Shown here: piece by piece, positions 2,048 to 53,009 of the stretch
Position numbering within the stretch: position 1 is the first letter of the stretch
How the letters are laid out: every line of letters begins with the position of its first letter
Sequence record: NC_054933.1
Direction: 5' to 3' (one strand)
Length of the DNA: 64,000 bases
DNA from: Escherichia phage teqhad
Made by a program: the position numbers and the translations under genes
The notes under the pieces: generated by a model
What the model was told of the DNA's origin: nothing
Databases searched by the model: none
Seen by the model: only the letters and a program-made list of their open reading frames with translations

Positions 2048-2245
2048 TCATTTTACACCATTCCAAATTGTTTCAACCACAGATTTTAAACCATTTTGAT
2101 GAATATCAATTCCGACTACTGTCATCAAATAGATTCCAACTACAACTGAACCTAAGGCAAAAATCAGCATGAAAATGAATAAAGCCGGAAAAATATTATC
2201 GAAAAACCATTCAATAAATGTAAAAGCACTGCGTTTACGCTTCAT
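2048..2245 (-). CDS. hypothetical membrane protein (65 aa)
   Basis: ORF 2048..2266 in track; internal ATG at 2245 has GTGAGGAAAAT SD; hydrophobic core. Confidence 0.5.
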   Translation of the reverse strand: MKRKRSAFTFIEWFFDNIFPALFIFMLIFALGSVVVGIYLMTVVGIDIHQNGLKSVVETIWNGVK

Positions 2246-2252
2246 ATTTTCC

Positions 2253-2953: not shown

Positions 2954-3511
2954 TTAAATGGAAAGATACCATCCGTTGTAGTTGCTTTTTCTTACAACCT
3001 TACGAAGGTCTTCTCTGTCACCGATGAACTTCGGAGTGTACTGGATGACACCTGGATGAATTTCTTTAGTGTTGAATATAATTATACAGTCAGCGACTTG
3101 ATGATTTAGAATGGGCCCTAGATTTATTCCAGAACCGTATGGATACTCTCCGCTGCATCCTGTTGTTACAGAAATCCAACGTGAGCCAGTTTGGTGTGTC
3201 TTAACTTCTACACGAAGCCCGCAGTATTTTGGATGCGCCAATACATCCCATGCATATGTGTAAGGATCATCGACATCTTCTTGGCCTTTATTGACATATC
3301 CGCTTAGCCAATCTGCCACGAAAAACTCTGCGTACACAGCGATACGGCATCTTTCGATAACTTCTGCTTTATCCTGGTTCGGGTTTTGTTTTAAAGAGTA
3401 TCTTGCTGTATCAGCAATTTTGACCTTCATTTCACTAGTCAAGTCACTGTTCGATAGGGTAAATGTCGGAATCTGAAATAGTCTCTGTAAACCCGGATTC
3501 GTTTTCTGCAT
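2954..3511 (-). CDS. denB: DenB-like endonuclease IV (185 aa)
   Basis: 185 aa ORF directly downstream of rIIB, the same size and position as T4 denB; AAAGGAAAG SD. Confidence 0.6.
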   Translation of the reverse strand: MQKTNPGLQRLFQIPTFTLSNSDLTSEMKVKIADTARYSLKQNPNQDKAEVIERCRIAVYAEFFVADWLSGYVNKGQEDVDDPYTYAWDVLAHPKYCGLRVEVKTHQTGSRWISVTTGCSGEYPYGSGINLGPILNHQVADCIIIFNTKEIHPGVIQYTPKFIGDREDLRKVVRKSNYNGWYLSI

Positions 3512-9376: not shown

Positions 9377-9744
9377 TTAAATTTAATGGCTTGAAGAAGA
9401 CTAATAATTCTCAAGCGACTTCTTTCATCTTTAACTGTAAAAGAAAGAGGGTCACCAGATTTCATAGTAATAGTACATTCAAAATCAAAATCTTCTGTGA
9501 CTTCTTCGAAGAAGTCAAATTCTTCAGCATAAATTAGAACATTACTCTGCATACTGTGAAGAATTTTTCCGTTATTTCCAGACGCTGTACTAATCATCGT
9601 AACATTATGACCTTTCATATCTTCAACGATAAATTCGCTTGTAGATATTACAGCATTAATAGAACCATTCCTATAAATAGCAGACATTAGATATTTCTTT
9701 TCTTCGCCTTCGCGAATACGATATTTCTTACCGATTTTAAACAT
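9373..9744 (-). CDS. hypothetical protein (123 aa)
   Basis: Track ORF 9373..9750 begins at GTG; the ATG at 9744 is preferred. Confidence 0.5.
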   Translation of the reverse strand: MFKIGKKYRIREGEEKKYLMSAIYRNGSINAVISTSEFIVEDMKGHNVTMISTASGNNGKILHSMQSNVLIYAEEFDFFEEVTEDFDFECTITMKSGDPLSFTVKDERSRLRIISLLQAIKFK

Positions 9745-17520: not shown

Positions 17521-18140
17521 TCAACTACCTCAATATCATAAACTTTAAATGTTCCAAATGAATCGTGTAATTTTTCTTTTGAAATAGAAGTTATTCTATA
17601 CTTTCCAATTGGAATCATCCATTCCTGTTCACGCACAATCATCATTAAGTTATCAGTACGCTCTGAATCTAATCCATCAGTATCTTCATACGTGTACTTA
17701 AACTCAGTATTAGGAGAAGAAAGTATAATATCGCTGATATGGTCAGAATAATTAAAAGCTTTATTAGTTTTTAAGCGAAGTATTATTTTAGTAAAATATT
17801 CAGCATAAGAAAAAGAACATGCTGTGAGCAAACTAGTAGTAAATGAATCTACTCTATTCGTTGAAAACACTTCTCCAACTTGTAAATCTTTAATAAGTTC
17901 TTCTGTTGATTTTGATATACCACGATATAACTGATAAGGTGATTTAGTTAAATGCTTTTTAATGATTTTATTCAACTGCCTATGAAGAGCTTCATTCTTT
18001 TTAGCTTCCATACATTGCCAAAGAATTGACTGCTCAAAGTCAGTAAATTTTTCACAGACTTTTTTATACATATCATATTGAAAATCAACGCTTTCAGCTT
18101 TTATAGATAACTGTTCAACATCTGCAAGATTAATAATCAT
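17517..18140 (-). CDS. modB: ModB-like ADP-ribosyltransferase (207 aa)
   Basis: 207 aa, 4-nt overlap with modA. Confidence 0.65.
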   Translation of the reverse strand: MIINLADVEQLSIKAESVDFQYDMYKKVCEKFTDFEQSILWQCMEAKKNEALHRQLNKIIKKHLTKSPYQLYRGISKSTEELIKDLQVGEVFSTNRVDSFTTSLLTACSFSYAEYFTKIILRLKTNKAFNYSDHISDIILSSPNTEFKYTYEDTDGLDSERTDNLMMIVREQEWMIPIGKYRITSISKEKLHDSFGTFKVYDIEVVE

Positions 18141-20607: not shown

Positions 20608-20615
20608 TATTTATA
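20608..20615 (-). promoter_or_regulatory. late promoter TATAAATA upstream of soc
   Basis: Plus-strand tatttata, i.e. TATAAATA on the coding strand about 30 nt upstream of the soc ATG. Confidence 0.6.
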
Positions 20616-20785
20616 TCAGTCTTCAATGAAAACTTGTGCCAGGAATTCGTGTTCATCTTGAATTTGTTTATATAAAGCCATTACAGCATTTATATTAGAG
20701 CTATCTACTTTAAGTTGATAAGCATACCACTCGTGTAAATTAATTAAAGCTTTTTGACGTCTAATAAATTCTTCTTTGGATATTT

Positions 20786-20986
20786 TCATTTTGAATGCTC
20801 TATAATTAATTTTAAGGCTTTTTCACTGACAAAAATTTCATCAGGACCTTCTTCTACAACCCAATCAACCGTACGAAGCTGATTAGATAAGAGCTCACAT
20901 ACGAGCTCCTTGTCATAATCTTTAAATAGCTGGTCAATACGTTTCTTGCGGGCTTTCTTAAGCTGGCGTTTATTTAAACGAGCCAT
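20786..20986 (-). CDS. hypothetical basic protein (66 aa)
   Basis: Track ORF; its start codon overlaps the gene 56 stop. Confidence 0.45.
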   Translation of the reverse strand: MARLNKRQLKKARKKRIDQLFKDYDKELVCELLSNQLRTVDWVVEEGPDEIFVSEKALKLIIEHSK

Positions 20987-21504
20987 TAATAGCCTCTGTC
21001 TTGACGAGCGAAATTTTCAGCATTTTTCAGATAATAAAGTTTAAAGATTTCTTCAGCTGACATTCCAAGAGCAATGAATTTATTCATGAAAAAGTGAAAT
21101 TGATCAATCAGTTCAAATTTAATTTCAAGTTGATCTTCAGGAGATAAATCTTGAATTTTCTTGGATTGCATTTCAGCATAACGTTTCTTCCAAGGTTTCC
21201 ATACAGCAGAAGCTTCTTTTTCACCATTACTCATACCACCAAGAGAAGTATATAGCTCGCGAGTTTCGTCTGCGATATAATCGTCTTGGTTTCGCAACCA
21301 AGCAAGAACTTCTCCTGCGGTTTCAAGTGAATCAGGATGACGATTTGTTTCTGGTTTATCATTAGCCAAACGAATCTGTAAATGCCGCTGCATGTCAAGC
21401 ATAACTTGTAGTGGGTCAATATTGTGCATAATATTCTCAGCATATGCACGATTTGCTTTATCAACACCTTCGATCAAATGAGCACATTCATTAAAGTGAG
21501 CCAT
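20986..21504 (-). CDS. 56: dCTP pyrophosphatase gp56 (MazG-like, 172 aa)
   Basis: MAHFNECAHLIEGVDKANRAYAENIMHNIDPLQ...; the ATG at 21504 has AAGGAAA SD, so the longer track ORF is an N-terminal over-extension. Confidence 0.85.
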   Translation of the reverse strand: MAHFNECAHLIEGVDKANRAYAENIMHNIDPLQVMLDMQRHLQIRLANDKPETNRHPDSLETAGEVLAWLRNQDDYIADETRELYTSLGGMSNGEKEASAVWKPWKKRYAEMQSKKIQDLSPEDQLEIKFELIDQFHFFMNKFIALGMSAEEIFKLYYLKNAENFARQDRGY

Positions 21505-21575
21505 TATTTTTCCTTTCAATTCATGGGTTAGTAGATTAATTATACAATAAATATATAAAGCAATAAGGAGGACAT

Positions 21576-21776
21576 ATGGTACAAAAATTAATGGCACTTG
21601 TTAATGCCATCAAAGGTAATAAAAAGCGTATAGCTTTTACTATTTCTGCTATGGTAGGAATTTTACTCTGGAACTTTATTTTATCACCTGTTGCAATTGC
21701 ACATGGTATTAATATTCCAGTAGTTACTCTTGATACATTCGTAGATTTAGCATTTGCTTTAGTTGGGTTAATTTAA
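21576..21776 (+). CDS. small membrane protein on the plus strand (66 aa, two predicted TM segments)
   Basis: AAGGAGG SD 4 nt before the ATG; hydrophobic; convergent with gene 61. Confidence 0.45.
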   Translation: MVQKLMALVNAIKGNKKRIAFTISAMVGILLWNFILSPVAIAHGINIPVVTLDTFVDLAFALVGLI

Positions 21777-22969: not shown

Positions 22970-23326
22970 TTAACCTCTATTCATAAAAGCATTAAAAATT
23001 TGGTCATCAATAGATAGTGCAGTAATATTTTCTGCATCATTTAGCAAATCATTAATTTCATCAGATAGCATAACACATGTACCTTTATTTCCTGTAATTG
23101 TTACTGCGCAATTACGAACGTTTTCTTTATTAAATTTTAGGTTAATATTTTCGTAATGAAAATCCTTTAATGCTGAATATATTTTTAAAATAAAATTGTC
23201 TTTTACTACAATAAACCCAACCTCACTATTAAAACGTGGTTCATGGAAACTGTAATAAACCTTTTCATCTATAAAATCGTATGAAATTTTTTCCATTTTT
23301 AAATATGAAAATTCAGAACTATACAT
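22970..23326 (-). CDS. 61.1-like hypothetical protein (118 aa); paralog of the C-terminal half of the next gene
   Basis: Ends ...SIDDQIFNAFMNRG; GFIVVKDNFILKIY aligns to GGIFVKDNRITRIIY in 23328..23954. Confidence 0.55.
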   Translation of the reverse strand: MYSSEFSYLKMEKISYDFIDEKVYYSFHEPRFNSEVGFIVVKDNFILKIYSALKDFHYENINLKFNKENVRNCAVTITGNKGTCVMLSDEINDLLNDAENITALSIDDQIFNAFMNRG

Positions 23327-23327
23327 A

Positions 23328-23954
23328 TTAATCTCTATTCATAAAAGCATTAAAAATTTGGTCATCAATAGAAACATTTACTTTAGACTGTTTTTCAGAT
23401 GGCAATTCATATCCACATATTACAATTTTATGATCAATATCAAAATACACAGAAGCAATATGATTAATGCTGTTTTCAGTAAAGTCTAAATCAACATCAA
23501 TATCTTTTTGACCAAAGCCCAAAGGATAAATAATGCGAGTAATTCGATTATCTTTAACAAATATTCCACCGACATACTCTGTGCTGCGTTTAAAGTCTAC
23601 ACGCCGACGAAATGAAAAATATTCAGGCTCTTTATGAGCTCGGCTCATAGGGCACAACGAATAACTAGAATAAGAGATGTCAAATCCTACGCCTTCAATA
23701 TGAACTAAATTGTCATGATTAAACCAATTATAATCATATGCCAAGTCCATTAGATTGTCATATGTGAAAGGCACCGGATTAACATCATTGGTCACAAGCA
23801 TATAATTAGCAACTGCTATAATTTCATTATTTTTAACGAATACAAACCGTGATTGATGCGAATGACCTGGACCCGCGTTTTCACGATTAATGATATAACA
23901 CTGGGCACCTTTATATTTGTATGTATCTTTGCACTTGTGCATTTGATAGAGCAT
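23328..23954 (-). CDS. 61.2-like hypothetical protein (208 aa)
   Basis: Ends ...SIDDQIFNAFMNRD; AGGTGA SD. Confidence 0.55.
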   Translation of the reverse strand: MLYQMHKCKDTYKYKGAQCYIINRENAGPGHSHQSRFVFVKNNEIIAVANYMLVTNDVNPVPFTYDNLMDLAYDYNWFNHDNLVHIEGVGFDISYSSYSLCPMSRAHKEPEYFSFRRRVDFKRSTEYVGGIFVKDNRITRIIYPLGFGQKDIDVDLDFTENSINHIASVYFDIDHKIVICGYELPSEKQSKVNVSIDDQIFNAFMNRD

Positions 23955-36954: not shown

Positions 36955-36962
36955 TATAAATA
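36955..36962 (+). promoter_or_regulatory. late promoter TATAAATA (plus strand) upstream of the HNH endonuclease gene
   Basis: Exact TATAAATA 33 nt upstream of the ATG at 36996. Confidence 0.55.
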
Positions 36963-36995
36963 TGTTTATCACTCGCTGTATCAAAAGGATATGTT

Positions 36996-37712
36996 ATGAA
37001 TTATAAACTAATTTATGAAAAGTTAATCTCTAATGCTAAATCTCGAAAACTTGATTGCTATACTGAATCTCATCACATTATACCACGCTGTTTAAATGGC
37101 AGCGATGATGCTTCAAACTTAGTAGAGTTAACACCAGAAGAGCACTATGTAGCTCATCAACTTTTAGTAAAAATTTATCCTTCTGAACCAAAATTAGTCT
37201 ATGCTGCTAACATGATGACAGTTTCCACGAAATACGCTAAACGCAACAATAAAACTTTCGGTTGGATTCGTCGTAAACTCTGGGAAATAGAAAAGAACAA
37301 AGAATTCTCCCAGGAGACACGAAAGAAAATGTCTGATGCAGTAGCTAATAAAGCAAGACTAACTTGTCCTCATTGCGGTAAGTCTGGATTAAGCGGGAAT
37401 ATGAATCGTTGGCATTTTGATAACTGCCCAAATCACCCTAATCCTAAAGTTAGACCACCAATGTCTAAAGAACACAGAAATAATATCTCAAACGGACTTA
37501 AAGCAATCGTTCTTGAAGAAACATCCTGCGAATTCTGCGGAATGATAGGCAAGAAATGCGTTATCGCAGCGCATAGAAATTTCTGCAAGAAAAATCCAAA
37601 TGGACGCAAGAAAACTGAAAAGACTGGTACTTGCGTCCATTGTGGTAAAGTTACCACTTTCGGAAATTTATCAAGATGGCATAATGATAACTGTAAATAT
37701 AAACCTAGCTAA
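36996..37712 (+). mobile_element. free-standing HNH homing endonuclease gene (238 aa) on the opposite strand, with repeated CxxC zinc-ribbon motifs
   Basis: HNH motif ...ESHHIIPRCLNGSDDASNLVELTPEEHYVAHQ...; C-terminal repeats CPHCGKSGLSGNMNRWHFDNC and CVHCGKVTTFGNLSRWHNDNC. Confidence 0.8.
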
Positions 37713-52086: not shown

Positions 52087-53009
52087 TTCAGTACCTCAAT
52101 AGCATCACGTAAACCATTTGCTTTGGCGGTTAAAGCCTTAATAACTTTAGTATGCTCTTCAATCTGTTTTTCAACTTCAATCAAACGGGCACTGAGATAT
52201 TCGCGTTCTTCTTTCATAGTATCATTCCCATGATTGGGCTTTGGCGTAGGTTTAAATTTATTAGGGTCCTTTAACTTAATAACAACTTTAGTTTCAAACA
52301 GTGAAAGACCATAATTCGTATTATCATCAAAGGATTCAACTACGTCCATTTTAGACAATAACGTACGAAGATTATAAGTCAAAGAACGAATCGTTTTATT
52401 ATGTTTATTAGCTTCACATGGTTTCATATATGGAAGATTTTTATATATTTCATGCGGAGCACAAACAATAATTGACAATTCAAATGGTCCATTCTGTGAT
52501 GATGGAATGAATTTAGCCGTAACCCAATCTTTTACATTTACATTAATAGTACGATCATCGCCATGACAAAACAGTCTACGAGAATGCTTAAAAATCATAT
52601 TCACATTATTATTAAATTCGTGTGAAAACTCGCTGGCAAATTTTTCTTTACTATTTTTAGAAAACCATTCTTCTAAATAAGTTCTTTTCACGTCATTAAT
52701 AATATTAAATGTAACAACATTAGCATTTGATACATTAGTCTCAATGTAGCTTGGATACATAAATTTTTTAACATTATTAACAGCTATCACAGAAGATAGT
52801 AATCGGGAACGTTTGAACCACTCGAGCAAAGAACCAAGAGAATGTGAATACGCATTTTGTGTATCTTTACAAATATGGTTTTCCCATCCAATATAGTCTA
52901 AAAAATCACGAAGAATATTATTGATTACTGCTCTGTGTCCTATCTGATAATTACGATGTTTAGTAATAAGACTGTCAAAATAATCAATATAATGTTTACG
53001 AGTTTTCAT
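52083..53009 (-). CDS. paralog A of a 4-gene tandem family (308 aa), C-terminal coiled coil
   Basis: Starts MKTRKHY...; central ..L..L...KxMDVV.. segment shared with paralogs B and C; heptad-like C-terminus. Confidence 0.6.
   Translation of the reverse strand: MKTRKHYIDYFDSLITKHRNYQIGHRAVINNILRDFLDYIGWENHICKDTQNAYSHSLGSLLEWFKRSRLLSSVIAVNNVKKFMYPSYIETNVSNANVVTFNIINDVKRTYLEEWFSKNSKEKFASEFSHEFNNNVNMIFKHSRRLFCHGDDRTINVNVKDWVTAKFIPSSQNGPFELSIIVCAPHEIYKNLPYMKPCEANKHNKTIRSLTYNLRTLLSKMDVVESFDDNTNYGLSLFETKVVIKLKDPNKFKPTPKPNHGNDTMKEEREYLSARLIEVEKQIEEHTKVIKALTAKANGLRDAIEVLK

Follow-up and report, generated by a model that had tools for sequence, protein, structure and literature searches.

Genes and signals between soc and gene 61

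We analysed a 64-kb stretch of the genome of Escherichia phage teqhad (the window), which is a mosaic Tequatrovirus sequence; along 24 kb it is ∼96–97% identical to several T4-like coliphages of known sequence. In the window, gene 56 and gene 61 are separated by a gap of 268 nt (21505..21772) according to both the listing of open reading frames (ORFs) and the raw sequence, in accordance with the ∼270 bp that had been given by an earlier reading of the sequence alone (the sequence-only reading). The sole sizeable ORF of this gap is a 66-codon frame on the opposite strand, known as dam.1, RB32ORF030w or RB69ORF029w, which is preceded by the strong AAGGAGG Shine–Dalgarno sequence that the same reading had pointed out (Table 1). 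The TAA codon of dam.1 (21774..21776) and the stop codon of gene 61 (21773..21775) overlap, sharing the palindrome TTAA. A 203-aa extension of gene 56 initiated by GTG (20986..21597) was rejected as an ORF-finder artefact because gp56 begins MAHFNE in all relatives.

Table 1. Positions of genes and predicted signals around gene 56 in the teqhad window
Feature	Position	Strand	Basis and remarks
soc, small outer capsid protein, 78 aa	20340..20576	-	Pfam Soc, E=7.8e-20
Late promoter of soc, TATAAATA	20608..20615	-	31 nt upstream of the soc ATG
57-aa ORF between soc and soc.2	20616..20789	-	PHROG 9053, function unknown; T6ORF029 position (position match only)
soc.2, 66 aa, basic	20786..20986	-	PHROG 5782, E=3.3e-40; sits where T4 has segF
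Gene 56, dCTPase/dUTPase, 172 aa	20986..21504	-	ORF listing; annotated gp56 in RB14, T4 and T6
Predicted MotA-dependent middle promoter of gene 56	21539..21562	-	TGCTTTA 21562..21556, 11-nt spacer, -10 element TATAAT 21544..21539
Late-promoter-like motif AATAAATA	21546..21553	+	7/8 match to TATAAATA; 22 nt upstream of the dam.1 ATG
Shine–Dalgarno sequence AAGGAGG	21565..21571	+	4 nt before the dam.1 ATG; kept in all homologues
dam.1 (RB32ORF030w, RB69ORF029w), 66 aa, predicted membrane protein	21576..21776	+	PHROG 2024, E=1.4e-31
Hairpin (21613..21588) and T-run, candidate intrinsic terminator	21578..21613	-	Within the first 13 codons of dam.1
Gene 61, DNA primase, 342 aa	21773..22801	-	ORF listing, raw sequence

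On the other side of gene 56, the 66-aa basic ORF that the sequence-only reading had described as adjoining gene 56 is present and is soc.2. T6 and moskry both call the ORF found here, between soc and gene 56, soc.2, and in RB14 it goes by RB14ncORF029c. In T4, the free-standing homing endonuclease gene segF lies between soc and gene 56 (PMC2988022). The T4 gene order segF–56–dam–61 bears out what the earlier reading had stated of T4, both for segF next to 56 and for dam between 56 and 61, and teqhad has no segF there. The presence of soc.2 instead of segF beside gene 56 is a known difference, with soc.2 being the T2/T6-type occupant of this position.

Beyond gene 61, the window carries two tandem ORFs, at 22970..23326 (-, 118 aa) and 23328..23954 (-, 208 aa, 61.2-like), both of which end in ...SIDDQIFNAFMNR(G/D). 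Of this pair, the long form alone is found in T4 and the short form alone in RB14, while the window has both in tandem.

An insertion hot spot between gene 56 and dam.1

To place the teqhad arrangement among its relatives, we compared the locus across T-even phages and their more distant kin. T6 (MH550421) and RB14 (FJ839692) share the gene order of the window, with soc, a small ORF (T6ORF029 in T6), soc.2, gene 56, the plus-strand 66-aa ORF and gene 61, and like the window they lack dam and segF; RB14 is 97.9% identical over 1.4 kb across the 56–61 locus. T6 differs in having ATT where the micro-gene has ATG (2232..2247 of our T6 locus sequence, L028), and the protein in its record, 61 aa long, initiates at Met6, a codon well away from the ribosome-binding site, so that the precise start may vary from phage to phage. 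T4 (NC_000866) shares with the window genes 56 and 61 and the 66-aa ORF with a GATAAATA motif and a ribosome-binding site, but differs in carrying a ∼0.9 kb dam cassette between the gene 56 promoter and the late promoter of the micro-gene, and in having segF where the window has soc.2 and the 57-aa ORF.

The micro-gene itself is intact in T4, where it lies between dam and 61 with its own AAGGAGG and 65 of its 66 residues identical to those of the window (one I->V). The T4 RefSeq record leaves this dam–61 gap (17626..17934, 309 bp) unannotated, the ORF being found at 3014..3214 of our T4 locus sequence (L001); T2, T6, RB14 and most newer records do annotate the 66-aa ORF. In T2, dam is accompanied by an extra 181-aa ORF and by the micro-gene, the latter annotated as ‘similar to RB69ORF029w’, and P8 has the same layout (the extra ORF measures 181–186 aa across T2 and P8). 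The sequence-only reading had seen the micro-gene as standing ‘instead of’ dam, which is not supported given that T4 has the intact ORF between dam and 61 and T2 annotates both. Other occupants are found between gene 56 and the micro-gene elsewhere: a homing endonuclease gene in Yersinia phage fPS-90, and two to three small ORFs in the metagenomic T4-like contigs L022 and L023, whose closest relatives are Klebsiella and Enterobacter phages. By sequence comparison, then, the micro-gene is the constant element and the stretch between it and gene 56 is the variable one. The dam-less layouts of T6, RB14 and many relatives, together with the lack of Dam in RB14, argue that the stretch from 56 to the micro-gene is a hot spot for insertion, and dam one of several accessory cassettes that it can hold. 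The teqhad arrangement is not unusual; it is of the T6/RB14 type, already annotated in public genomes.

Distribution of Dam

As the sequence-only reading had claimed, there is no dam in the 56–61 interval of teqhad, and its proposed check, a search for a dam homologue elsewhere, returned none in the 64-kb window or in the whole RB14 genome. With T4 Dam as the tblastn query, the best match in the window was a weak one at 52396..52599 (E=0.02), which was rejected as a chance match because it is antisense to a 308-aa ORF. We defined a T4-type Dam as an ORF of ∼259 aa that is homologous to T4 Dam, with FxGxG and DPPY motifs; the window contains no such ORF, and within it the motif [DNS]PP[YFW] occurs in no methylase-size ORF, its sites falling only in ORFs of at most 107 codons. 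The complete RB14 genome has neither a Dam homologue (tblastn best E=0.95) nor an annotated dam.

In the phage collection, T4-type Dam (at least 90% identity) is found in 182 records. The DNA of the 56-to-61 interval is found in 505 Tequatrovirus records, in 335 of which it covers at least 80% in one piece, like the dam-less window. Judged by interval coverage, the dam-less layout is thus common to about two thirds of the ∼500 Tequatrovirus records, and together with the layouts of RB14 and T6 these counts show that the dam-less state is common and already present in published genomes. Classical enzymology is reported to have found a DNA adenine methylase induced by T2 and T4, and not by T6. 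With the insertion site between 56 and 61 empty here, teqhad most probably produces no GATC adenine methylase of its own.

dam.1 is conserved as a protein-coding frame

Residues 2-66 of the dam.1 product match positions 1-65 of the 65-position PHROG 2024 profile. By tblastn the micro-gene is present in ∼695 phage records, ∼500 of them at 90–100% identity (Tequatrovirus) and 194 at <60% identity (Mosigvirus, Gaprivervirus and Kanagawavirus), and among the matches listed it adjoins the primase gene in every case. In several Tevenvirinae genera it lies on the opposite strand and converges on the 3′-terminus of the gene block on the primase side, and in most cases its end overlaps the stop codon of the primase gene. 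This convergent position was found in the window, T4, T2, T6, RB14, F2, moskry, WFK, Q7622 and the contigs L022 and L023, with a 124-aa ORF interposed between the micro-gene and primase in L023. When 1.8 billion representative proteins were searched exhaustively with a profile, only 14 clusters were recovered, and a scan of viral contigs contributed only five further, near-identical loci. All distant members scanned (P0078, P0080-P0088) match PHROG 2024, which is labelled ‘unknown function’.

Each of eight pairs of dam.1 sequences was analysed for its ratio of non-synonymous to synonymous substitution (Nei–Gojobori), giving dN/dS of 0.10–0.39, with six of the eight pairs at 0.10–0.25. The values are 0.10–0.25 within Tequatrovirus and within Gaprivervirus and ∼0.2–0.4 between genera, where synonymous sites are saturated and protein identity is still ∼50%. 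Across 20 sequences W32, N33, F34, P38, G44 and P48 are invariant, and among 16 distant members P38 is invariant and W32 and N33 nearly so. The family core for which we tested, W-N-(F/Y)...P...G...P...(D/E), is present in the window micro-protein. The conserved frame, the ribosome-binding site and the substitution pattern all argue that dam.1 is a protein-coding gene under purifying selection.

Members of PHROG 2024 also occur away from T4-like phages. An E. coli prophage in yegD has one as its final gene (9502..9714 of L031; 25 of 5426 complete genomes), and another lies in a metagenomic phage contig (3001..3210 of L027) between tail genes and a serine recombinase gene.

A late-promoter motif precedes dam.1 in all lineages inspected

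The octamer TATAAATA is the T4 late-promoter element. In every dam.1 homologue inspected, (N)ATAAATA lies 15–35 nt upstream of the ATG, even amid unrelated surrounding sequence. The variant AATAAATA is found in the window, RB14 and Mosigvirus; GATAAATA in T4, T2 and the distant contig L023 (nearest to Klebsiella phages); CATAAATA in Gaprivervirus and the distant contig L022; and TATAAATA itself in Kanagawavirus. In RB14 the AATAAATA variant also precedes genes 49, 15, inh and t.

The heptamer ATAAATA is ∼6-fold depleted in the window, where it occurs seven times on both strands compared with 41±6 times in dinucleotide shuffles; RB14 has 51 occurrences where 122 are expected. The seven window sites are at 9673(+), 20614(-), 21547(+), 23526(+), 36956(+), 49965(-) and 63518(-), and five of them lie 22–33 nt before an ORF with a ribosome-binding site, namely soc, dam.1, an HNH endonuclease ORF, gene 49 and a 70-aa rI.1-like ORF. 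A plain scan for ATAAATA therefore picks out likely late promoters of the early region. We found no sigma-70-like site on the plus strand upstream of dam.1. A conserved motif that is otherwise depleted, in combination with the lack of a sigma-70-like site upstream, leads us to read dam.1 as a late gene, most probably transcribed from AATAAATA by gp55/gp33/gp45-directed RNA polymerase. Literature searches on T4 transcription start mapping and T4 ribosome profiling returned nothing relevant to a dam.1 transcript.

This signal layout resembles that of T4 late genes served by TATAAATA and gp55/gp33/gp45 (soc, 49 and t), in which, likewise, (N)ATAAATA stands 20–35 nt ahead of the ATG and a strong ribosome-binding site comes after the motif. 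Unlike those genes, dam.1 points rightward on its own amid ∼50 kb of early and middle genes that run leftward; in RB14, the dam.1 strand carries only 2 of the 93 features annotated over the first 50 kb. Two further rightward sites in the window have a perfect TATAAATA. One stands 33 nt before the ATG of a 238-aa ORF for an HNH-type (mob-like) endonuclease (motif and ORF together at 36955..37712, +), which, like dam.1, runs rightward by itself where the early genes around it run leftward. The other, at 9672..9679 (+), has no ORF or ribosome-binding site behind it and may drive late synthesis of an RNA antisense to early genes.

The late motif shares its DNA with a signal for the opposite direction. 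MotA-dependent middle promoters have the consensus TGCTT(t/c)A ∼12 bp upstream of a TAnnnT -10 element, and the predicted gene 56 promoter of this type occupies the same 71-nt region, with the late motif of dam.1 sitting within its spacer. T6 and Gaprivervirus have the same MotA box and -10 element, Mosigvirus F2 has a weaker version, and a ‘predicted middle promoter’ is annotated, independently, at the corresponding place of the fPS-90 record. In T4 the dam cassette parts the two promoters, and each stays next to its own gene.

Within dam.1, the minus-strand hairpin and T-run are annotated as a terminator in SA21RB and fPS-90, and probably end the gene 61 transcript. They are seen in Tequatrovirus only, being absent from Mosigvirus, Gaprivervirus and Kanagawavirus. 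The same DNA (21578..21613) apparently codes on the plus strand and acts as a terminator on the minus strand. No terminator was found for a rightward dam.1 transcript, which would run antisense into gene 61.

Predicted topology of the dam.1 protein

We modelled the dam.1 protein with AlphaFold (AF2) from 20 sequences, obtaining helices at residues 2-12, 16-42 and 52-65 (pLDDT 81). The chain can be divided into an N-terminal amphipathic helix, a KGNKKR basic cluster, a membrane helix at ∼19-42 bearing the invariant W-N-F...P, a loop with HG..P, and a short acidic-hydrophobic C-terminal helix. Hydropathy likewise gives one strong membrane segment at ∼19-42, with KGNKKR just before it. All members have four to eight K/R residues N-terminal to the membrane helix and almost none after it, from which a cytoplasmic N-terminus is predicted.

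The sequence-only reading had labelled the protein ‘two-TM’. This label is doubtful because there is only one strong helix, while the C-terminal helix (52-65) is 14 residues long and, though hydrophobic and free of K/R, carries a conserved acidic D/E53 and usually D57; on a crude scale, the insertion energy of the last 19 residues sums to +5.8 to +9.5, which is unfavourable. A protein that spans the membrane once, and whose C-terminal helix is associated with the membrane on the periplasmic side, is no less likely than a two-TM one. Probably, dam.1 encodes a small protein of the inner membrane that has a cytoplasmic basic N-terminus, crosses the membrane through a single helix and places a short acidic-hydrophobic helix on or within its periplasmic side. 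Pfam, NCBIfam, PDB sequence-profile and BFVD fold searches with the micro-protein gave nothing usable, and literature searches on the dam.1 family names and on the distribution of dam in T-even phages returned nothing relevant. As a low-confidence guess, dam.1 could be a late accessory of the envelope or of lysis timing.

Alternative explanations

The absence of dam from this locus would have another meaning if dam had moved elsewhere in the genome rather than been lost, so that the phage still methylates GATC. The window shows only 64 kb of ∼167 kb, and more distant T4-like genera do carry Dam homologues at other map positions. We nevertheless consider a move highly improbable: besides the negative searches of the window and of the complete RB14 genome, T4-type Dam occurs in only 182 records against ∼500 Tequatrovirus records with the micro-gene, and every inspected T4-type Dam copy maps to the 56/61 locus. 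A similarly slight chance attaches to the idea that the 66-codon frame is no gene, and that its DNA is kept for the gene 61 terminator and for a late promoter making antisense RNA against the primase mRNA. The minus-strand hairpin within the ORF, the rightward transcript lacking a predicted terminator and the omission of the ORF by the T4 RefSeq annotators would all fit such a non-coding role. However, the dN/dS values above speak against it, as does ∼50% protein identity with invariant W-N-F/P/G/P residues despite saturated synonymous sites; frame length and ribosome-binding site are kept in every lineage, the hairpin is missing outside Tequatrovirus, and family members reside in unrelated prophages with no primase gene nearby. 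With dam.1 taken as coding, an antisense effect could still come on top.

If dam.1 is a gene, a holin-like or antiholin-like lysis-timing factor is a candidate for its product, though an unlikely one. Its small size, membrane helix and late-promoter motif agree with such a role, as do one UniProt entry auto-named ‘Holin’, the matches of distant members to PF11351 GTA_holin_3TM (E ∼0.1; 13.6–13.9 bits, with a cutoff of 24.8) and to the holin PHROG 11161 (E=0.012–0.065), and the position of the E. coli prophage member 1.5 kb from a lysozyme gene. All of these holin matches are sub-threshold, and we rejected them as evidence because they cover only the hydrophobic segment. In the two non-T4 (pro)phage contexts that we inspected around distant members, neither showed a recognisable lysis cassette and no spanin or endolysin gene is adjacent; there is only the lysozyme gene, which is on the other strand. 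In T4-like phages the gene never adjoins the endolysin gene, its neighbours in the window being 56 and 61, and the T4 lysis set is already complete with t, e, rI, rIII and pseT.2/pseT.3. The family does resemble class II holins and pinholins in its length (57–73 aa), its hydrophobic helix and the basic cluster next to the membrane. Unlike them, it has no significant profile match and one convincing membrane helix rather than two, lacks a charged C-terminal tail and is not linked to an endolysin gene. A broader proposal, to which we give slightly more credit while still holding it doubtful, is that dam.1 is an overlooked, near-universal late gene of enterobacterial Tevenvirinae, encoding an inner-membrane protein with a late role in lysis timing, lysis inhibition or envelope integrity, and that its transcript might act as an antisense RNA shutting down primase expression. 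If this were true, the E. coli prophage relatives would suggest that dam.1 function is not tied to T4 biology.

Interpretation

Very probably, the window holds the T6/RB14-type, dam-less form of a known variable T-even locus, and dam.1 is a real gene for a small membrane protein that is most probably made late. In this explanation, the constant parts of the locus would be gene 56 with its leftward MotA-type middle promoter, and the rightward late promoter with dam.1, converging on gene 61. Between the two promoters would lie the insertion hot spot, empty in teqhad, T6 and RB14 and filled elsewhere by dam (T4), by dam and a 181-aa ORF (T2), by a homing endonuclease gene (fPS-90) or by small ORFs (Klebsiella-type relatives). 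dam.1 would be transcribed late from AATAAATA and translated from its strong ribosome-binding site.

The presence or absence of dam here is an ordinary accessory-gene polymorphism of T-even phages and matters little. It predicts that teqhad DNA would be without phage-made GATC adenine methylation, a modification that influences how sensitive unglucosylated DNA is to some methylation-dependent or methylation-blocked nucleases. The residual value of the finding lies in dam.1: the T4 reference omits a gene that is conserved, and under purifying selection, across several genera, and that resembles a solitary late gene placed within the early region.
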